A DNA stretch of 64,000 nucleotides from Promethearchaeota archaeon (GCA_016840165.1 JAEOSU010000080.1:96001-160000), one strand, 5' to 3'. Shown: positions 32,322 to 53,851, counted from the first letter of the stretch. Numbers and translations: made by a program. The notes: generated from the sequence alone by a model not told the origin.

Positions 32322-35300
32322 CTATTTTAATTTCCAATGTTTTTTCCCTTTTTTAATTTCAACAATTATGATTCCTTTTCTTTCTAATTCTTTTAATTTA
32401 AGCTGTAGGAATCGAGCATCCATCATATCTTTTATTTTCATCTTAAAAATTAATGAAGTGATTGGTTGCCATTCATTAGATAAGAATTTCAATATTTTAT
32501 CAGTCGATATTATTGGTAATTGTGTTTGAGTCGTTTTCTTTTCAGTAACTTTTGGTTCTTTTTTGATGGGAACTTTAACGATATTCTTTTGCTCAATAAG
32601 AGGAGTTTCTTGGTAGGGTTCTTTTACTTTTTCTTTTAATTCCTCAGCAGTAGCCTTATCATGTAAAAGAGATTCTTGAATAATAGTAATCATTTCATTC
32701 TTTTTTAGGTTAGATGAAAGTTCGATATTCTTTTCCTCACAATATTCCATGAGTTCTCCTTTAGTCATATTTTTTAGGGTTTTTGGGGATAAAACTTCCA
32801 TTTTTGAAATAGGTGCCTCCTTAGATTTCACAATTGTCTCAGTTTCTTTTAATTTATTGATGTATTGTTCAGACTCAATTTTTGGAGTTTCTGTAGGAGT
32901 TATTTTAGCACCGATGGCATTTATCATTAAAGTTTCTAATTCAGAAACAGATATTTTATCCGTATATTTACTATTCCCCTGAGTAGCAATATTATAAATG
33001 CTTTCTACGAAGGTTGGAATATATTTCTCAATATAGCTTGCTCTTTTCTCTTTTTTGCTTAAGTTCGCTTTTCTGTTAAGATAAACACGTAATCTTCTGC
33101 CTATAGCCTCAAGACAATATTTTATTTCTTTTATTAATTCTGGATCATCTGCTAAAGCATTTTTTGACTGGGATTTGAACATAAGATGGACATAAGGACC
33201 TGAAACATTAATTAATAACAATATAGGTCCTTTAGGTAAATTATTATCATATACATCAAGTTTGTAATTCTTCCAATTGACAGTTTGAACTGCTTTAGTA
33301 ATAGCGCAATCAGCGTTATCTCTCAATTTTGGAGTTCGGTTGACATATCTAAATAAAACATCACTAGATCGTTTAGGAGTTTCAAGTTTTTTTGGATCAT
33401 TACAATAAGCTAATACCGCTTCTACGACATAAGCAAGTCCTTTTCCACTTGTAGGAGGTCTAGTCTCAGCAGATACAAAATCGTCATCCCGAGAATAATT
33501 ATCGGTAAAATATTCAAAAATCTGTTCATAGGATTTTAAGGATGGATTTACTGATAATTCTAATATATTTTGTATTGAATGCTTGAGTTTTTCCTTATCA
33601 ACACTTACTTCATTTAAATTGATCCCATTCATGATCTGCAGATTAAACTCGAGAAGATCTTGCTTTGTTAATTGTTTATCGTCTTTTAATTGAACCTGTT
33701 TAGCTAACTGTATTAGTTCTTCAATGGGCTCCTCAAAATCTTCAGTTGCTTCTGAAATTTTTAAACCTATTTCCTTAATTAATGTATTTTCTAAGACGGT
33801 GTCCCCCACAGGAATGGCTGTATCAGTGGGGGGTGCCATGTACTTTATAGACTTAAAAGCGTGGAATAATGAATTGAATTGTTTATTTGTAACTTCTGAT
33901 GGTTTCGATTTAGAGATTTGAACCTCTTCCACCAGATCTTCTAATTCTGATCGATTGATCACTTTTTTTAATTCAACTAAATTGTCCTTATTCGACTCAA
34001 TCAGTTTGTTTAAATCGTTTTTAATCTTTTGCTTTTCTTTATTGATGGCTTTGATATCGACTAGTAATTTATCAATATTTTGTTCTATCTTCTTTTGATC
34101 TTTTTTAGTCTCAGCTTTTTCAATACGATCGCTGTATTTTTTTATTTGTTTTTGGATTTTTTCTAAATCTTTATTAAATTGATTATAATCTGATATCTTT
34201 TCCCAGTATTTCTCTACTAAATCATGTGATTCAATTTTATAAATGATAAGTTTTTCTCGTGGTTTTTTAGATTTCCCAAAAACACGCTTTTCGAAAGTTA
34301 AGAATAGAATATCTTCATTCTTTTTTTCATTTTTTTGGATAAATCCCGACTTAAGAATGAGTAGGTCTAATTCATCCTCTAAACTTCTTTGGGCAGACTT
34401 TATAATTTTTTTTGCTGTATTAGAACTTACTCGGACGAAATTATCTTGTAAAAACGCAGAAACGGTTAGATTTTCGGATTTGGCGATTAAATCCTGCAAA
34501 TCCCCGATATTTGTTGAGGAAGGATGAGGTTTTGCATATTTTGGTTCCCTTGGAAATGAGGAGACTAAACGCTCGAACTTTAATTCCTCACCATAAGGAT
34601 CGATATAGATTATCGTTATATGAGGATTCATAAGTGCGGTTTGTCGAATGTAAATATCCGCTGAACCTCTTTTATATTTTGTATTTAAATAATTAAGTTT
34701 TATGTACGTGCCATGTAAAAAGGGACTGTCAACCTCAGTGGGATGTACTAGATATCTTTTTTCATTTTTAGATGTCGTGAAAAATTCTGAAACGGTGGCA
34801 TAGATGTTGTCACTCGATTTTGATACAGCAATAATTGGCTTACCAGTTGTGTTTTGTGAATCACTAAAAGCACTTGGAGCTCCGAATCCTTGACTACCTC
34901 TAGTCTGCTTTAATTCGAAACTTTTTGATGAAGCTAAGTATTTTCCGAATTTACGTAAATCATTTTTACCCATACCTATTCCATTATCAAAAATCTCGAA
35001 GGAATAACTCATAACATTTTTTTGAGATAACTCAGAAGTTAAAAAACTTGGTGCCTCTGACTCTCTGAGACGTATTATGACTAAAGGTTCTGTATCTATG
35101 ATGGATTCTACTGGCTTAATGATTTCATTCATATCTTCAATGATACGTAAAACTTCCTCTTCTACTTCTAATTCTGATTTGTCAACTATTTCTCCAGATT
35201 CTGTTTCTTTATCTTCGTTAAGTATTTTAGTTTCTTCTGAGATTTCTGCTGGACGGATACCCATCTCCTGCATGAGAACACTTTTAGCTTCATTATTTAA

Positions 35301-35573
35301 TGGTTTTTTTTCATCTTCATCCATTCCATCTTGAAGAATTGACAAATTTCGTAAAGTGAGTTCTTGATCTAATGAAAAGGCAATTTTTGAAGAATCTTTT
35401 TGTAATTCATTCCATTGAAAAGACTCAATTGCATCAAGAGCATTATCCATAAATTCTGCAGCGTATTGGGTATGTTTCCAATAACCAAATTCAAATCCTA
35501 CGAGCTGTGTGCGTTTCCTCATGAACTGAGCAATAGTTCCTTGCTCAATTCTTCCATCATCTTCAGAAGTAAT
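32322..35573 (-). CDS. top6B: DNA topoisomerase VI subunit B, greatly expanded (about 1083 aa; ORF track start 35522, inferred ATT start 35573)
   Basis: EFMDNALDA, DNGIG, QTRGSQGFG, HGT GHKL motifs; PKYAKPHP; RYVNRTP transducer. Open frame continues upstream as ITSEDDGRIEQGTIAQF, matching the usual Top6B N-terminus. Confidence 0.9.
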   Translation of the reverse strand: MTSEDDGRIEQGTIAQFMRKRTQLVGFEFGYWKHTQYAAEFMDNALDAIESFQWNELQKDSSKIAFSLDQELTLRNLSILQDGMDEDEKKPLNNEAKSVLMQEMGIRPAEISEETKILNEDKETESGEIVDKSELEVEEEVLRIIEDMNEIIKPVESIIDTEPLVIIRLRESEAPSFLTSELSQKNVMSYSFEIFDNGIGMGKNDLRKFGKYLASSKSFELKQTRGSQGFGAPSAFSDSQNTTGKPIIAVSKSSDNIYATVSEFFTTSKNEKRYLVHPTEVDSPFLHGTYIKLNYLNTKYKRGSADIYIRQTALMNPHITIIYIDPYGEELKFERLVSSFPREPKYAKPHPSSTNIGDLQDLIAKSENLTVSAFLQDNFVRVSSNTAKKIIKSAQRSLEDELDLLILKSGFIQKNEKKNEDILFLTFEKRVFGKSKKPREKLIIYKIESHDLVEKYWEKISDYNQFNKDLEKIQKQIKKYSDRIEKAETKKDQKKIEQNIDKLLVDIKAINKEKQKIKNDLNKLIESNKDNLVELKKVINRSELEDLVEEVQISKSKPSEVTNKQFNSLFHAFKSIKYMAPPTDTAIPVGDTVLENTLIKEIGLKISEATEDFEEPIEELIQLAKQVQLKDDKQLTKQDLLEFNLQIMNGINLNEVSVDKEKLKHSIQNILELSVNPSLKSYEQIFEYFTDNYSRDDDFVSAETRPPTSGKGLAYVVEAVLAYCNDPKKLETPKRSSDVLFRYVNRTPKLRDNADCAITKAVQTVNWKNYKLDVYDNNLPKGPILLLINVSGPYVHLMFKSQSKNALADDPELIKEIKYCLEAIGRRLRVYLNRKANLSKKEKRASYIEKYIPTFVESIYNIATQGNSKYTDKISVSELETLMINAIGAKITPTETPKIESEQYINKLKETETIVKSKEAPISKMEVLSPKTLKNMTKGELMEYCEEKNIELSSNLKKNEMITIIQESLLHDKATAEELKEKVKEPYQETPLIEQKNIVKVPIKKEPKVTEKKTTQTQLPIISTDKILKFLSNEWQPITSLIFKMKIKDMMDARFLQLKLKELERKGIIIVEIKKGKKHWKLK

Positions 35574-35793
35574 TTTAACAACCTACATTATAATATTAAT
35601 CTCAATAAGAAAACCTTAGATCATTATTTTTAATTGTATATCTATTGGTATTAAAACTATGACCTTATGGTAATTTTTCATAATCTTTTTATTTATTTTT
35701 CAAAATCTATCTATTTATTCATTTTGAACTAAAATTGATTTCTTATTTAAATTTTATCCTAGCAGAAAAATTTATCAAAAAGAGTGTAATGAA

Positions 35794-46869: not shown

Positions 46870-47616
46870 ATGATGATGAAGCTCTTAGTAATCATTCCTG
46901 CATTTAATGAAGAGAAGACTATTGAGAATGTAGTAAAAAGTATTCCTAATATTCCTAATATAGATCAAGATGTGCTCGTTATCGATGATGGAAGCAGTGA
47001 TAATACTTTAATATATGCTAAAAAACAAGGAGCTGAGACTCGCTCAAATAGAAGAAATATGGGACTTGGTTCGGCTTTTAAATTAGGTTTAAATTATGTT
47101 TTACAAGAAAAAGTCGATTATATAGCAATTTTGGATGCTGATGGACAATATGAGCCATATGGATTAAAAAGACTCATCAATCCAATTATTAATGAAAATT
47201 ATGATTTGGTTATCGGTAATCGTTTCATTAATGGAGGATATTTTGAAGCAAGAACTATAAAACGTCTGGGAAATCTCTTTATTTCTACACTTATATCGAA
47301 AGTATTATTAAGATTAGAGATAGTCTATGATATTCAATCTTCTTTTAGGGCATTCAATAAAAAGTTAGCTATATTTATTTTAAACAATATTAACGCGAAA
47401 TATAATTATGCTCAAGAAATGTTTATTTTAGCTAGCCTATATAGATTCAGGATTAAGCAGATCCCGGTTATATGTAAAAAGAGACATTCAGGAAAATCCA
47501 GACTTATTAAAAACCCAGCTCTCCATATAGTTCGAATATTATGGGTTTGTCTTAAAACATTTATAAAAAATTTTTTTATAAGGAATTACTCTTTTCCCTC
47601 ATCAAGTCCTAATTGA
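46870..47616 (+). CDS. GT2 glycosyltransferase (DPM1-like)
   Basis: IIPAFNEE, IDDGSSDNT, LDADGQY, VIGNRF. Confidence 0.9.
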   Translation: MMMKLLVIIPAFNEEKTIENVVKSIPNIPNIDQDVLVIDDGSSDNTLIYAKKQGAETRSNRRNMGLGSAFKLGLNYVLQEKVDYIAILDADGQYEPYGLKRLINPIINENYDLVIGNRFINGGYFEARTIKRLGNLFISTLISKVLLRLEIVYDIQSSFRAFNKKLAIFILNNINAKYNYAQEMFILASLYRFRIKQIPVICKKRHSGKSRLIKNPALHIVRILWVCLKTFIKNFFIRNYSFPSSSPN

Positions 47617-48344
47617 GAGATCATCATTCTTTTTAAATCCTGTCTATTTTTTGGCAGCCCAAACATATCTGCATATTTGTCTGTAGTCATTAATTCATGG
47701 CTTCTTCCTTTTTTTTCTGCAGATATTAATTCATTATCAAGGAGATACTTAACATGTTCGTATGCACCAGTACCTCTAATTTTTATGACAGTTGACTTTA
47801 AAATTGGTTGCTTTAAGGCAATTATAGTAAGGGTTCTTAAATACTTTTCCGCTATCGCCCCACCTTTAGTAAATTTGGAAATAGTTTCTGTATATTCCGG
47901 TCTTAGCTGCATTTGGTAGCGCTCTCCAACTTGCGCTATGACAAGCGCACTCGAGCGATCTAAATATTCATATGCAAGTTCGGTGATTAATTCTTCCACC
48001 AACTTTTTTGAGATTTCTAGTTTAGTGGCAATTTCTTCTATATCCAATGGACTTCCAGCAGCATAAAGAGCTCCTTCAATTAAATTTTTTTGGATAATCC
48101 GAAATTCTTTATCTTCATCTAAAGTTTCTTTTTCTATTTTTTCTTCTCCAATATCCATTTCATCGCTGTCCTCACTCTCAATATCTTCGATTTGCTCACT
48201 ATCTTGATCAATAGTATCATTTATTTCAGTATCAGATTCATTATTTTCATGGGATCCTTGTTCTGGATCAGATATGGATTCAACTTCTTTTTGATTTTCA
48301 TCTTTTAAATATTCCTCAATTTGATTTTCTTCCTCATTATCCAT
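47586..48344 (-). CDS. scpB: SMC-Scp complex subunit ScpB with acidic N-terminal extension
   Basis: IEGALYAAGSPL, LRTLTIIALKQPILKS..IRG, TTDKYADMFGL. Confidence 0.92.
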   Translation of the reverse strand: MDNEEENQIEEYLKDENQKEVESISDPEQGSHENNESDTEINDTIDQDSEQIEDIESEDSDEMDIGEEKIEKETLDEDKEFRIIQKNLIEGALYAAGSPLDIEEIATKLEISKKLVEELITELAYEYLDRSSALVIAQVGERYQMQLRPEYTETISKFTKGGAIAEKYLRTLTIIALKQPILKSTVIKIRGTGAYEHVKYLLDNELISAEKKGRSHELMTTDKYADMFGLPKNRQDLKRMMISQLGLDEGKE

Positions 48345-48359
48345 GGTTTAATCTCCCAA

Positions 48360-49355
48360 TTATCTTATATTAATTATAAAATCCCTAAAATCCTCTTCCT
48401 GGTTTAAGGTTAACTTATTTCCCGTTGAGAGAAACATTAATGCTAAAAACATCCTTACAAATGCAAATCTTCTTCCAATATCAGATGGTTCTTCATTTTT
48501 AATTATTTGAGCTAAATCAAAAAAAGTAGTCTCTACACCTTCTAAGTTTATTTTTGCTTTTATTCGATTAAACCAGGACTCATGTAATTCCTCTATTGAT
48601 TGTTCTCTTCCACTGATATGCTTTAATAATTCTTTTGGTAACTGAGCTTTTGATCTCATCTGGATTTTTTGTTCTTTTAATTGTTCTCTTCGTAATCGTC
48701 TCCGCCTTAATTTCTCTTTATTTTGCATTGTTTCTATTATAGCAGAGCGCATAGCTTCGAATAACTCCTCTTTTGTTGCAATAAGCATTTTTGGCTGCAA
48801 TGGTTGAGATAATGTTTTCGGGATGGTTCTAGCATGCGATTGCCTGAACTTTTCGAGCTCCTCTTTTTTCTGTATTTCCTCCTCTTGTTTAATGATGCTC
48901 GAGATTTTATAGTGATGTAATGATGCAGAGGTTTTGAGAGCAATTCCTGAAATTTTGTAATTTATTAGACTTTCATGGAGCATGTTATCGAAAAATTTGT
49001 CTACCAGTGAAGCTAAGTCGTAAAATGCTACATTTGAATCTTTTGCGAGCTCCGTATCCAACAAACTCGAATAAGGAGGTTTTTGCCAGAATTTCAATTC
49101 CATTTTTTCCTTATACAATAAAGCAGGGTCATCATCTTCCTCTACTCCCGCAATTAATTCTTCTTCTAACTCAACTTCTTGCGTTCGATCAATAAAATCC
49201 GGGTGAGAAACAATCTCCTCCAGTAATTTAATTATATCTTTCTTTTTTGATTTAGAAGGAATTGTAATATTATTTTTTCCAGCAAAATCTCTTAATTGTG
49301 CAACAGTCCATTCAGTAAATTTGTTTTCTTCTTTAGCTTCACTTTCTTTTGAAAT
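48360..49355 (-). CDS. scpA: Kleisin ScpA with N-terminal HeH/SAP-like domain (ORF track start 49118; inferred ATT start 49355, 331 aa)
   Basis: YDLASLVDKF...ISGIALKTSASLHHYK N-kleisin; FLALMFL...LNQEEDF C-terminal winged helix; lies between smc and scpB; frame open upstream to a GGTGA-preceded ATT. Confidence 0.85.
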   Translation of the reverse strand: MSKESEAKEENKFTEWTVAQLRDFAGKNNITIPSKSKKKDIIKLLEEIVSHPDFIDRTQEVELEEELIAGVEEDDDPALLYKEKMELKFWQKPPYSSLLDTELAKDSNVAFYDLASLVDKFFDNMLHESLINYKISGIALKTSASLHHYKISSIIKQEEEIQKKEELEKFRQSHARTIPKTLSQPLQPKMLIATKEELFEAMRSAIIETMQNKEKLRRRRLRREQLKEQKIQMRSKAQLPKELLKHISGREQSIEELHESWFNRIKAKINLEGVETTFFDLAQIIKNEEPSDIGRRFAFVRMFLALMFLSTGNKLTLNQEEDFRDFIINIR

Positions 49356-49362
49356 TTCTATT

Positions 49363-49367
49363 TCACC
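49363..49367 (-). promoter_or_regulatory. Shine-Dalgarno-like GGTGA for scpA
   Basis: GGTGA lies 7 nt before the in-frame ATT at 49355; the same motif precedes mcm (TTG) and cofD. Confidence 0.6.
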
Positions 49368-49387
49368 TAATTAAAATGAATACTTAA

Positions 49388-52300
49388 TTAACTTTCCTCG
49401 ATGTTTGTGGGTACATCCGGTAATTCTAATAATTTTTTAGCCTCCTCCTCTAAATCGACGCTAAATATATCCGTTATACCACTTTGCTGCATTGTGACCC
49501 CATATATTCTATCTGCATTTACAATATTCTCTTCTCGATGACTAATAACCATGAATTGAGCTTGTTGAGCAAATTCTTTAATCACCATGCTTACTCTATG
49601 AACATTTGGACCGTCAAGGGCAGCATCTATTTCATCCATTATATAAAAGGGTGCGGGATAGAACTCCTGCACAGCAAAGATGAATGAGAGAGCTACGAGC
49701 GTTTTCTCTCCTCCACTAAGAATTTCCAAGCTTGAGATCTTCTTTCCTCTTGGTCGTGCTTCTATACTTACACCTCCTTCGAAAGGTTTATCCGGACGAT
49801 CTAAAATCATTTTAGCAGAGCCACCTGGGGATAATTTTTGAAAAATTCGCGAAAATTCTCGATTAATTTCATGATATGCTTTCATAAAAGTACGAGTTTT
49901 CTCAAGTTCAATCTTTTCTATAGCATCTAAGATAGCTTTACGTTCACGTTGGATTGTTTGTCTTCGCATATCGATCTCATCAAAGCGTTCTTTAACGGCA
50001 TCAAATTGTTCTATTGCTTTGAGATTTACAGGTTCCAAAGCATTTTTCTTTTTAGATGCTTCAGATATATCCGATTGGAGTCCAGATTCGGATAAATCAT
50101 CTGTAACAGGAGGAATAACACCATAATCTTTAGAACGATGATAAAGGGTTTCAATTTGATCTTTAGTAATTATAATTCTTGATTCATAATTATTTATTTT
50201 CGAATTTTCCATAGAATAATCTGTTTTTAAATCAGTGATTATTTTCTGATAGTTCTTTTGCTTATTCCAAGATTCATCTTTTTGTTGAATAAATTGATTT
50301 AATTCTTCTTGTTTGAGATTTTTGTTTTGTTTTTCTTGTGATAAATTCTCTTCGAATTTTTTTATTTCTATGGAGATTTTTTCAATTTCTTTCTCAGTAT
50401 CATCAATATCTTGATGTAATGCTAAAATTTTGTTTTCTCTTTCTTTATTTTTATTGATTTCATTTAAATTTCCTTGATTTTTCTGTAAATCATTATTAAG
50501 CTTATTTAGATTCTTTTGAGCGGCTTTCTGGAGCTCTATTTCTTTGCTTTTTTCTTGTCTTAATCCATCAATGATGTTTTGTATTTCATCAACTTTTGAT
50601 TGCAGGCTTTCAATCTGTTTTTTATTTTCCTCAACATTTTTCTTGCTAGCTTCAATATTTATCTTTGCATCTGAATTTTCTTTTGATAAATCCTCAATAG
50701 ACGTAATAATCATCATTATATTATCTAAAGATCTCAATTTGTTCATAGTTTCTTCTAAAATCTTATTTTGTTCGTCGATCTGAACCCTTATACTTTCAGT
50801 GTTTTCCCAAAATTTCTCCTTTTTACCAATTAATTCATTTATATTCGAATTGATGGATTCTTGTTCCCTGTTAACTGAGTCAATTTTATTTTTTATTTCA
50901 TTTATTGTCTCTTTCTTTGAGTCAATGTATTTTTTTAAATCTTCAATATTCGTCTCTATTTCAATAATACTATCAAAAAGAGATTGAATTCCCTGTAATT
51001 CTTGGAGATTTATCTGTAATTGTTCCAACTCTTTTTGTTTCGAATCGATTTTACCTTGAATTATTTCAATATTTTCCCAGTACTTAGATTTTAGATCTTT
51101 TAATTTTTTGATATCATCTTCATAATTTTCTTTTTCTTTTTCATTAATTTGATTACTCCTTTGACTTATTTCCTCTTCAGATTTACTTATAGTCTCACTC
51201 GCCTCAGAGATTTTTCTATTAACTTCATCTAATCGTTTAGTATACAGAGCAAAGTCTTCGGAATCCCGTTTTTTGTTAATATTAACCTCAGTTAATTTAT
51301 TCTCTATGGTATTTAAATCATCTGTTTGAGATGCAATGTTTAGAGAAATCGCCTCGAGTTGTTTATATAGGTCCTGACTCTTAGACATAGTTAGTTTTCT
51401 AAGAGAAATATAGACATTTTCAAGGATTTCCATAAGATCTTGAACAAAACTATCGAAGTTAGTCGTCGATTCTTGAATTTCAACATCAGCAGATTCTTTT
51501 ACTTTAGAAATTAACTGATCAATGGTAGAATCAACATTATCAGTAAATAGAGAAAGGGTTTGGAGTATTGAATTAATAGATTTCGAGGTTTCGCTTTCTT
51601 CATCAGTCTCACCACTAACGTCCTCAATGGTTTTCATAATATCTACGATATCTAATACAAATTTACGGAAATCATCAGCTGAAGTTTCAATAGCCTCAGC
51701 ATTTGATTGTTGTATATTACTCTTTATTGATTCTACACTAATATTGATATTTTGCGTTAACATATTTAGGATTTGAAGTATACCGGTTATATCTTCTGTA
51801 TTTCTCTCATATTCTTTTTCTGTTTTTTCAATTTTTAAAGAAAGTTCTTCTTTTTCTTTTATTAAATCATTTAAGCGTCTTTGAATATTTTCCTTTTTAG
51901 AAACGAGATTATTTTCGTCATTTTCTACTTTAGCGAGATTACTCTTTAGATTATTAACTTTTAACTCTGAATCACTCTTTTCTCGTTCAAGGTTTGTGAA
52001 GTCTCGGTTTACTAATTTTAATTTTGTATTTAGGTTTTCTATTTTTGCTTTGTGGTCATATATTTCTGATTCTATAGAATCTTGCTTCATTATCAATAAT
52101 TCTAAATCTTGTTCATATTTTCTGAATGTTGAATTTTCTTGTTGATATTCTTTCTTTAACTTATTTAATTCATTATTAATTGCTGATTTTTTATTCAGCA
52201 TTTCCTTTAAAACGATTTCTGTATCTTTACCCTCACTTAATTCTTTAATTCTGTTCTCAATTAATGTCTTTTTTTCCTCCATTTCCGCTATTCTCGTGTT

Positions 52301-53851
52301 ATTAATATTAATTTCCGTAGTTAAAGAGGATAAGGAGGATTGAAAGGCTAATTGATTTGAATTTAATTCACTTTGCTTATCCTGTAATTCTTTAATTTGA
52401 TTCTCTAGATTTTTCTGGTTTTGATTTTCTTTTGATATAGCTGATTTCAATTCATTTATTTTCTTTCTTATTGCGAGCTCCTCTTTTTTTGTAGCATCTA
52501 TTGCATCCTCTATACTTTCTGCCTCTCCTTTTAATTTTTTAAGATCCTCCTCTAATTTTATTTTCTTCTCTTCATTCTTCTTGATGTTCTCTTTAAGTAC
52601 TTTGATTTGAGCATTATCAGATGAAATATTTTGCTTCACATTTGAAATATCTGATTTAAACTTAGATTGTTCTTCATTTTTAAGCTTGATTTGATTATCT
52701 AAATCAGCTTGATTTTGCTGTCTTGTTTCTATTTCTTCTTTTGATTCTTCGATTAGTTTTTCAGTTTCAGAAATTTTGTTAGTAAATTCGCTTATAATTG
52801 AATCATAGGTTTGTCCCTCCTCAAGTTTCATCTGTTTATTCTCTAATGATACAATTTCTTTAGAATATTTATCAATAGTTTTCTTTGCAATTTCTAAACT
52901 GGTCTGATGAGAAGAGAGTTGAGTTTTTAATTGAGTAATATTTTCGTTAATAGTTTCTTTTTCCTTTTCCTTCTCAGTAATTGTTTTTTGGATGTTATCC
53001 ATGAGGAATGATTCCTGTTTTAATATTTCTTCTTGTCTAGTTATCCTCTCTTCCAGTTCCTCAATAATTTTGGTTGATTGCTCAACATTTTGCTGTAAAT
53101 TTTCTTCCTCCTCTTTTAATTTCGAAATCTTTAGAGCGATTAATTGAGCATTATAATATTTTATTTTTTCATCTAATTCCTTCCAAGCTAATGCATCATT
53201 CTTTTCTTTTTCAACTTTCTTCAACTGAGAGGATACCTCTTTAAAGATAGCTTCGAATTGACCCAAATCTCTCTCAGCTTTTTCTAGTTCTTTCATTGTT
53301 GCATCTTTCATTTCATCGTATTTCTGAAGGCCTATGAGTTCTTCAATAAAATCCCTTCGATTCTCCGGATTCATATGAGTCAATTCAACAATTTTCCCTT
53401 GTAAAACAAACTGATTTGTTCCATCAGGATCTATATTCGCAGTAGCTAGAGCATTTAGAATTTGCTGACGAGTTGCTCTTTTGCCATTTATTTTATATCC
53501 GCCCCCACCACCACGTTTAATTGAACGAGATACTTCAAATGTGTCACCTGGAGTAGGGAAAATATTCTCAGAATTATCGAAATATAGGCTAACCTTCGCT
53601 CTCTGAGAAGGATTCTTTCCTCTAGACCCCGCAAATATTAAATCTTCCAGACTCTTAGCTCTCATCGTCTTTTTGCTTAACCTTCCTAATGCAAATGTTA
53701 ATGCATCAATAATATTGGATTTTCCTGCTCCGTTTGGTCCCACAATGCAAGTAAAGCCACTTGAAAGCTTAATTGTTACAGTCCGGTCGCCAAAACTTTT
53801 AAACCCAGTCATTGATATTTTTTTTATGTGAGTCATCACATTATTCCTCAA
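49388..53851 (-). CDS. smc: Chromosome segregation ATPase SMC, elongated, with non-canonical hinge region
   Basis: GFKSF, GPNGAGKS, VLQG, LEPVNLKAIEQF, LSGGE, DEIDAALD, ISH. Real start probably 53836 or 53839. Confidence 0.95.
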   Translation of the reverse strand: MRNNVMTHIKKISMTGFKSFGDRTVTIKLSSGFTCIVGPNGAGKSNIIDALTFALGRLSKKTMRAKSLEDLIFAGSRGKNPSQRAKVSLYFDNSENIFPTPGDTFEVSRSIKRGGGGGYKINGKRATRQQILNALATANIDPDGTNQFVLQGKIVELTHMNPENRRDFIEELIGLQKYDEMKDATMKELEKAERDLGQFEAIFKEVSSQLKKVEKEKNDALAWKELDEKIKYYNAQLIALKISKLKEEEENLQQNVEQSTKIIEELEERITRQEEILKQESFLMDNIQKTITEKEKEKETINENITQLKTQLSSHQTSLEIAKKTIDKYSKEIVSLENKQMKLEEGQTYDSIISEFTNKISETEKLIEESKEEIETRQQNQADLDNQIKLKNEEQSKFKSDISNVKQNISSDNAQIKVLKENIKKNEEKKIKLEEDLKKLKGEAESIEDAIDATKKEELAIRKKINELKSAISKENQNQKNLENQIKELQDKQSELNSNQLAFQSSLSSLTTEININNTRIAEMEEKKTLIENRIKELSEGKDTEIVLKEMLNKKSAINNELNKLKKEYQQENSTFRKYEQDLELLIMKQDSIESEIYDHKAKIENLNTKLKLVNRDFTNLEREKSDSELKVNNLKSNLAKVENDENNLVSKKENIQRRLNDLIKEKEELSLKIEKTEKEYERNTEDITGILQILNMLTQNINISVESIKSNIQQSNAEAIETSADDFRKFVLDIVDIMKTIEDVSGETDEESETSKSINSILQTLSLFTDNVDSTIDQLISKVKESADVEIQESTTNFDSFVQDLMEILENVYISLRKLTMSKSQDLYKQLEAISLNIASQTDDLNTIENKLTEVNINKKRDSEDFALYTKRLDEVNRKISEASETISKSEEEISQRSNQINEKEKENYEDDIKKLKDLKSKYWENIEIIQGKIDSKQKELEQLQINLQELQGIQSLFDSIIEIETNIEDLKKYIDSKKETINEIKNKIDSVNREQESINSNINELIGKKEKFWENTESIRVQIDEQNKILEETMNKLRSLDNIMMIITSIEDLSKENSDAKINIEASKKNVEENKKQIESLQSKVDEIQNIIDGLRQEKSKEIELQKAAQKNLNKLNNDLQKNQGNLNEINKNKERENKILALHQDIDDTEKEIEKISIEIKKFEENLSQEKQNKNLKQEELNQFIQQKDESWNKQKNYQKIITDLKTDYSMENSKINNYESRIIITKDQIETLYHRSKDYGVIPPVTDDLSESGLQSDISEASKKKNALEPVNLKAIEQFDAVKERFDEIDMRRQTIQRERKAILDAIEKIELEKTRTFMKAYHEINREFSRIFQKLSPGGSAKMILDRPDKPFEGGVSIEARPRGKKISSLEILSGGEKTLVALSFIFAVQEFYPAPFYIMDEIDAALDGPNVHRVSMVIKEFAQQAQFMVISHREENIVNADRIYGVTMQQSGITDIFSVDLEEEAKKLLELPDVPTNIEES

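Follow-up and report, generated by a model that had tools for sequence, protein, structure and literature searches.

The stretch of DNA analyzed here, a 64,000-nucleotide (nt) window from the genome of a Promethearchaeota archaeon (GCA_016840165.1 JAEOSU010000080.1:96001-160000), includes a locus in which the kleisin gene scpA is located between smc and scpB. All features of the locus are on the minus strand, and the gene order smc–scpA–scpB on one strand is the same in metagenome relatives. The smc gene (49388..53851) encodes a 1487-amino-acid SMC protein with complete head domains (SMC_N, 158 bits) and ends with a TAA at 49390-49388. The scpA stop codon is at 48362-48360 and is followed by scpB (47586..48344), the product of which matches Pfam SMC_ScpB over residues 88-238 (E=3e-35, 121 bits). 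The protein is extended at its N-terminus by a highly acidic stretch of about 87 residues (48084-48344, minus strand) ahead of the ScpB domain. When open reading frames (ORFs) are called by standard means, scpA starts at TTG 49118 and the 269 nt that separate it from smc are left unassigned. An earlier inspection of the window by sequence alone (the sequence-only reading) had claimed that this gap is open in the scpA frame and that ScpA is translated from an ATT located 7 nt after a GGTGA. Both observations were borne out and the 269-nt gap is coding. From stop to stop the frame is open from 49370 to 48360 (336 codons) and is closed upstream by an in-frame TAA (49371..49373) located downstream of the smc stop. 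The first in-frame ATG, GTG or TTG is the TTG at 49118; it is the 85th codon of the open frame, and the 84 codons before it include none of the three. The Shine-Dalgarno motif GGTGA (49367-49363), complementary to the 3′-end of the 16S rRNA, is 7 nt away from the ATT at 49355-49353, and translation from this triplet produces exactly the peptide quoted in the sequence-only reading.

Counted from the proposed ATT (AUU) start codon, scpA has 331 codons. A short acidic leader (residues 2-12, 49320..49352), modeled with a predicted local distance difference test (pLDDT) score below 50, is followed by a helix-extension-helix (HeH)/SAP-like domain (residues 13-50, 49206..49319) recognized by Pfam profiles, AlphaFold2 modeling and structural neighbors. 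This domain consists of helix 1 (residues 18-27, 49304-49275), an extended basic loop between the two helices (residues 28-37) with the motif IPSKSKKK, and helix 2 (residues 38-49, 49244-49209). An acidic linker (residues 51-84, 49104..49205, isoelectric point (pI) 4.05) with conserved motifs connects it to the kleisin core (residues 85-331, 48363..49103), which includes an N-terminal helical domain, central helices and a C-terminal winged helix. The protein is a kleisin with an appended domain of a DNA-binding type that a non-canonical start codon has hidden from annotation.

The conservation of the extension was assessed by a six-frame search in which the 336-residue scpA frame was used as the query against same-genus and same-family genomes. 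An orthologue was present in all 24 other genomes of the genus and in 85 of the 101 genomes of the family. The matches nearly always began at query residues 2-16, which is within the extension, and had no internal stops. In all complete orthologous loci that were examined, the extension was open and its protein sequence was conserved; the stops or frameshifts that would be expected in these loci if the region were not coding were not found in any of them. The protein database contains 355 homologues, many of them about 335 amino acids long and covering 99% of the query, and several have precomputed Pfam matches to HeH, Ish1, Rho_N or SAP. The ratio of nonsynonymous to synonymous substitutions (dN/dS) was estimated from a codon alignment of 17 same-genus loci, with the figures taken from the 12 loci in which no canonical start occurs. 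Synonymous sites were saturated (dS at least 1.4) and dN was about 0.2. The median dN/dS was 0.11 in the HeH segment, 0.18 in the linker and 0.05 in the kleisin core. Because dS is saturated while dN/dS is low, the sequence comparison indicates that the extension is translated and under purifying selection, and we have little doubt that translation includes the HeH domain.

The opposite interpretation is that the extension is an untranslated relic in this genome, that ScpA starts at TTG 49118 or ATG 49103, and that the frame is open by recent ancestry or chance. Standard gene callers do pick a downstream start, and among the 120 best database homologues, 51 are annotated from a start that omits the HeH domain. 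This interpretation is nonetheless strongly disfavored. A stop-free stretch of 84 codons has a chance probability of about 8e-4 at the base composition of the window, and the frame stays open in 46 loci devoid of a canonical start, where dN/dS is about 0.1 and synonymous change is saturated. Furthermore, the Shine-Dalgarno motif and its spacing are conserved, and other genes of this genome need ATT starts to encode complete domains. The truncation of about 40% of the database entries (as counted among the 120 best homologues) comes from the fact that gene callers disallow ATT, ATA and ATC starts, and it makes the domain invisible to annotation-based surveys.

The start site was compared in 76 HeH-type scpA loci, which were taken from eight of the family's genera, and in two further, independent Joint Genome Institute (JGI) metagenome contigs. 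No ATG, GTG or TTG is found in frame between the upstream stop and the domain in 46 of the 76 loci. A GGTG is located 6-8 nt before one aligned codon in 64 of them. Across the 76 loci, this codon is ATT in 37, ATA in 12, ATC in 4, GTT in 6, GTA in 1 and ATG in 2, and the combination of GGTG with ATT, ATA or ATC at 6-8 nt is present in 53. In 8 further loci, the aligned codon is an ATG without GGTG. The same GGTG/ATT arrangement is found in the independent metagenome contigs, and database orthologues that start with MPEE or MSEE begin at the same aligned column. In four loci (L014, L017, L082 and L037) a stop codon immediately precedes the ATT or ATC; therefore, nothing upstream of it can be translated. 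The 3′-end of the 16S rRNA, GGATCACCTCCT (contig C49), is complementary to GGTGA, and in this genome the genes with GGTG before an ATG most often have 6-7 nt between the two, within a range of 5-9 nt. The ATT proposed in the sequence-only reading is thus backed by the comparison of 76 loci, and an AUU start of scpA at 49355 is very probable. The 7 loci with GTT or GTA at the aligned codon, which are hard to read as starts, count against this assignment; in most of them the preceding codon is an ATC, with a spacing of 4 nt.

Other ways to begin the protein were considered. A fusion of SMC and ScpA through a frameshift or readthrough was ruled out by the scpA-frame TAA at 49373-49371, past the smc stop, and it is also contradicted by the four orthologous loci with a stop immediately before the start codon. 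The GTG within GGTGA is out of frame (GTG AAA TAG) here and in most loci. The ATA at 49361 is an unlikely start since it is 2 nt after GGTG, compared with the 5-9 nt spacing characteristic of this genome. In two metagenome relatives with ScpA proteins about 89% identical, a gene of about 200 amino acids is located between smc and scpA (L040:577-1191 and L041:598-1191). It had no Pfam match, and despite its insertion these scpA genes retain the GGTG, an 8-nt spacing and the ATT.

A weak start codon could also let ribosomes pass, and two isoforms could then be made, a rare long HeH-ScpA from the AUU and a short canonical ScpA from TTG 49118 or ATG 49103. These in-frame codons, at residues 80 and 85, are just before the kleisin core. 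However, a conserved internal start was rejected because the Met at residue 85 varies among orthologues: the KEK-x-ELKFW column holds M, L, V, Y or F. The internal start has no conserved Shine-Dalgarno sequence, and purifying selection also acts on the linker that precedes it. We consider the production of two isoforms quite improbable.

Initiation at the AUU of scpA is not an isolated case in this genome. ORFs with at least 40 open codons before the first canonical start were scanned for GGTG followed at 6-8 nt by ATT, ATA or ATC near the ORF opening, and the combination occurred 13 times in frame versus 1 and 3 times out of frame. Two of these genes have Pfam domains that are complete only when translated from the ATT behind GGTG. 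In a Ras-family GTPase (G000:C78:13204-13728 (-), L107) the domain begins at residue 9 counted from the ATT and the first canonical start would remove 84 residues; in a GFO/IDH/MocA oxidoreductase (G000:C58:133421-134674 (+), L113) the domain begins at residue 2 after the ATT and 42 residues would be removed. About ten further candidate genes initiated at ATT or ATA were observed in this genome. The gene for subunit B of topoisomerase VI (Topo VI-B), top6B (32322-35582, minus strand, about 1083 amino acids), most likely starts at ATT 35573, which is 7 nt after an AGGT and follows a TAG at 35585-35583. In relatives, the homologous codon of top6B is ATG in 7 loci, GTG in 2 and ATT in at least 10. 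A translational throttle specific to scpA as the reason for its ATT was weakened by the finding of ATT and ATA starts on several unrelated genes.

The E. coli genes infC and pcnB are AUU-initiated genes behind a Shine-Dalgarno sequence. The genes described here resemble them in the strong Shine-Dalgarno motif, the optimal spacing and the conservation of the near-cognate start among relatives. They differ in that the initiation system is archaeal (aIF1/aIF2) and in that the habit is lineage-wide, comprising at least about ten genes in this genome; also, there is no evidence of autoregulation for the Lokiarchaeial genes. A full-text search of the open-access literature returned no description of ATT starts in Asgard archaea.

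The sequence-only reading had also recognized in the extension the pattern of the HeH/LEM/SAP/Rho-N domains, and had suggested profile searches and structure prediction as a check. When these were carried out, they returned matches to profiles of the HeH class and a helix, extended loop, helix model, in agreement with that pattern; the profile matches were sub-threshold for the protein of this window and stronger in orthologues. The fold class is taken here as the Pfam clan of PF12949, PF02037, PF07498 and PF10281. The 84-residue extension matched Pfam HeH with E=1.9e-5 (24.7 bits) and Rho_N with E=2.6e-4 (21.3 bits, cut-off 24.9), and there were weaker matches to Ish1 and SAP, which have the same fold class. 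When 36 family members were scanned singly (E no higher than 0.01), 29 matched Rho_N, 26 HeH, 25 Ish1 and 11 SAP, with top values around 1e-6 to 1e-7 and a best E of 2.5e-7. The AlphaFold2 model built from a 36-sequence alignment has a helix at residues 18-27, an extended loop at 28-37 and a helix at 38-49, with pLDDT of 82-87. The full-length model has the same HeH fold, set off from the kleisin by low-confidence residues 60-84.

An exhaustive structural comparison with VIA-align gave a list dominated by SAP, Rho-N and LEM domains, with Z scores of 3.6-4.9, low for a small domain, and root-mean-square deviations (rmsd) of 1.7-3.7 Å over 40-53 residues. The SAP neighbors were 1zrj, 1v66, 2do1, 2do5 and 1h1j together with the SAP regions of FAN1, SLX4, MKL1 and DEK, and the others included the Rho-N domain 1a62 (Z 4.4) and the LEM domain of emerin (7ndy, 2odc). 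The composition of this list together with the profile matches is the reason for the fold assignment. Several results weigh against it. The HeH match is below the Pfam gathering cut-off of 28.9 bits. A sequence-profile search of the PDB with the N-terminal alignment found nothing significant (top rows calcyclin, E 0.09; Rho, 0.17; Tho1 SAP, 0.65), and Foldseek found no match to the isolated domain in the PDB at E of 1e-3 or lower, with the SAP domain of rice SIZ1, the SAP-like domain of CDNF (rmsd 1.6 Å over 38 residues) and Rho as the best rows, all with E above 2. The VIA-align Z scores reach a maximum of 5.2, in a range that the tool calls common for small helical models. NCBIfam had no match for the whole ScpA or for the extension. 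Taken with the evidence in its favor, an HeH/SAP fold of the domain is nevertheless very likely.

The domain shares with the eukaryotic SAP (Tho1, PIAS1, Ku70, SAF-A), HeH (Heh1/Heh2/MAN1) and LEM (emerin) domains the order helix, basic loop, helix in about 35-40 residues, a hydrophobic L-x-x-F in helix 1 and a K-K-x-D-[IL]-I in helix 2. It differs in being fused to an archaeal kleisin, with no membrane or SUMO-ligase context. The N-terminal domain of bacterial Rho is also similar by these measures, since Rho_N is the commonest Pfam match and 1a62 is a structural neighbor. However, in Rho the sub-domain precedes an RNA-binding oligonucleotide/oligosaccharide-binding (OB) fold, and the Lokiarchaeial ScpA includes neither an OB fold nor a helicase. 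The scores are modest and the fold is very simple, and the likeness to the eukaryotic SAP/HeH/LEM domains may come from homology or from convergence.

The linker at residues 51-84 had been described as flexible and acidic. The acidic character is clear (13 D/E versus 3 K/R) and the model confidence is low (pLDDT below 50 at residues 60-84), but the description applies only in part. The linker includes the conserved motifs HP[DE]F[IV]DR, EELIAG and DPAL, and residues P52, F54, D56, R57, E66 and A69 are nearly invariant. Because of these nearly invariant motifs, the linker is more than a passive spacer.

The identity of the scpA product as the kleisin of the smc–scpA–scpB operon was accepted because of the structural matches of its winged helix and the position of the gene between smc and scpB. 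Pfam SMC_ScpA was sub-threshold (16.8 bits, cut-off 24.6, E=0.007) and covered the C-terminal part only. In the full-length AlphaFold2 model, the core begins with KFWQKPP, helices are predicted at the N-terminal side (residues 95-175), the central helices are long and the middle is partly disordered. The top Foldseek matches of the C-terminal winged helix were the ScpA, Brn1 and Scc1 C-domains in their SMC-head complexes, namely 5xg3_C and 4i99_C (template modeling (TM) scores 0.73-0.78) and 6qj2_B, with probability 1.0, target-normalized TM scores of 0.56-0.78 and E values from 7e-3 to 5e-2. There was also a weak profile match to the Scc1 C-terminus, and the name given by JGI to the orthologues is 'Rec8/ScpA/Scc1 (kleisin family)'. 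The protein shares with canonical ScpA (Pyrococcus, Bacillus; PDB 4i99, 5xg3, 5h66) the operon, the winged helix of the C-domains bound to Smc heads, a helical N-terminal domain and a long, partly disordered middle. It differs in the 84 additional N-terminal residues, the sub-threshold SMC_ScpA match and a partner SMC of about 1490 amino acids without a detectable hinge.

This partner was compared with the SMC proteins of other genomes. The 1487-amino-acid SMC of the window had no Pfam SMC_hinge match. The extended kleisin is likewise adjacent to an SMC of about 1490 amino acids without a Pfam hinge match in genomes G025 and G044, of two other genera (L144:318-4802, L145:227-4687), so that the association was seen in 3 of 3 cases including the window. 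G025 and G044 also have a second, 1200-amino-acid SMC with a strong hinge (E=1e-30) that is paired with its own ScpB (L146:1537-5151, L147:1687-5274). Since these genomes have a separate hinge-bearing SMC with its own ScpB, the smc–scpA–scpB operon described here looks like a distinct, order-specific SMC system. In the genome of the window, the only hinge match is weak (E=5e-7) and is located in a 1152-amino-acid frame on contig C54.

The claim that canonical ScpA lacks a domain of this kind agrees with what was found in a sample of the other Asgard classes, where the open frames of the detectable ScpA homologues are 225-259 amino acids long and match from core residues 3-9, with no extension and no room for one. 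All ScpA proteins examined from the same order carry an appendage at the N-terminus, the type of which varies. The HeH domain is present on the kleisin in eight genera of the family, and two HeH domains in tandem precede the kleisin core in some orthologues, such as P0094 (410 amino acids) and P0105 (400 amino acids). In L100:498-1601 (-) the HeH position is occupied by an HHH_5 helix-hairpin-helix (HhH) domain (E=8.6e-14), and in L101-103 and L022 by a CPYCG...HKC zinc knuckle plus a basic tail (L101:498-1484 (-); L022:762-1811 (+)). Other families (L027 and L030 among the sister lineages) have lysine-rich tails, in which about 100 residues include 31-40 K/R, all with ATG starts. Each type of appendage is followed by an acidic segment and then by the [KQ][FW]W motif that is conserved in the kleisin core. 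The same type of HeH domain is found near the C-terminal end of Topo VI-B in this genome (about 32616-32780, minus strand), where a Rho_N/HeH-type domain at residues 933-966 scores 30.7 bits, above the Pfam cut-off. Domains of HeH/SAP type are also at the C-terminus of a 305-amino-acid gelsolin-repeat protein (L034:1495-2409 (-), G000 contig C104) and of a protein with an IFT52-GIFT/ABC_transp_aux-like N-terminal domain (L035:1486-2664 (-), G000 contig C30).

Kleisins are usually regarded as linkers, which complete the SMC ring and bring in partner subunits, and not as DNA binders themselves; their N-terminal end is located at the SMC neck, which in cohesin serves as the DNA gate. The pathway that we propose for the protein of this window begins with translation most likely at the AUU, positioned by the GGUGA Shine-Dalgarno 7 nt upstream, where the initiator tRNA would put a Met at position 1. 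The N-terminal helical domain of the kleisin would then bind the SMC neck and the C-terminal winged helix the SMC head. The HeH domain, which is basic (pI 9.3) and has an invariant K38 and a nearly invariant K35 assigned to the loop, may bind double-stranded DNA without sequence specificity. As a tethered anchor, it would hold DNA, or the complex, near the SMC neck and head, the docking site of the kleisin N-domain. The acidic linker may extend its range, or may shield the basic domain as long as the complex has not engaged DNA. The proposal of DNA binding is strengthened by the HhH, zinc-knuckle and lysine-rich modules that fill the same position in sister lineages, and the HeH domain appended to Topo VI-B also speaks for it. 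That four unrelated types of nucleic-acid-binding device occupy this one position argues more strongly, if indirectly, than any other observation for nucleic-acid binding by the HeH domain, most simply of double-stranded DNA.

A different possibility is that the HeH domain is translated but binds protein or RNA, and that it docks on SMC, ScpB, a neighboring Cdc6/Orc-like protein or a chromatin protein in the way LEM docks on BAF. The fold class includes protein binders: the SAP-like domains of BiP-bound CDNF/MANF are among the best structural matches (9h0c, 9i5y, rmsd 1.6-1.8 Å) and the LEM–BAF structure 7ndy was also listed. Rho_N is the commonest Pfam match (29 of 36 members), the conserved motifs of the linker resemble interaction sites, and the HeH type is also found on the gelsolin-repeat and GIFT-domain proteins, neither of which is an obvious DNA enzyme. 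On the other hand, the replacements in sister lineages (HhH, zinc knuckle with basic tail, lysine-rich tails) are classical non-specific nucleic-acid binders and not docking domains, and the second HeH-bearing protein of the window is a subunit of a DNA topoisomerase. On this evidence, the HeH domain is unlikely to be a protein or RNA binder instead of a DNA anchor.

The proposed DNA anchor must also be weighed against three points. The net charge of the domain is only modestly positive (7 K/R versus 5 D/E). Its fold class also binds proteins, as in LEM–BAF and MANF/CDNF SAP–BiP, or is part of RNA-binding modules, as in Rho. Both ATT translation and DNA binding are predictions from sequence and model. 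For the HeH domain as a built-in DNA anchor, which had been suggested from the sequence, we see a chance slightly better than even, and the explanation as a whole, an AUU-started HeH-kleisin that acts as a DNA anchor, is the one that we favor with moderate confidence.

The condensin Brn1–Ycg1 'safety belt' and cohesin Scc1–Scc3 are DNA anchors associated with eukaryotic kleisins. The concept, a DNA site on or around the kleisin besides those of the heads and hinge, would be shared by the Lokiarchaeial protein. The eukaryotic anchors consist of HEAT-repeat subunits and mid-kleisin loops, and the one proposed here would be a small separate domain at the very N-terminus. In a full-text search of the open-access literature, including two papers that treat the evolution of SMC proteins and kleisins with Asgard archaea among the organisms covered, no description was found of an HeH/SAP domain on an archaeal or bacterial kleisin. 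A broader and rather doubtful extension of the anchor model is that the order has a second, specialized SMC complex made of an SMC of about 1490 amino acids without a recognizable hinge, a kleisin with an N-terminal 'slot' for interchangeable DNA-binding modules and an acidic-tailed ScpB. The anchor would take over a DNA contact normally made elsewhere, such as at the hinge, and the HeH domains that Asgard archaea have on the kleisin, on Topo VI-B and on proteins related to the cytoskeleton would be kin to the eukaryotic SAP/HeH/LEM tethers.

The occurrence of the domain on several proteins presents the SAP/HeH fold, a typical eukaryotic chromatin tether, as a mobile module in Lokiarchaeia. 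If the module of ScpA binds DNA, these organisms would offer a natural experiment on the effect of an extra anchor on the loading or translocation of an SMC complex. If the broader model, with its kinship to the eukaryotic tethers, is true, it would represent an archaeal precedent for the tethering of chromosome machines to chromatin through the HeH/SAP fold.

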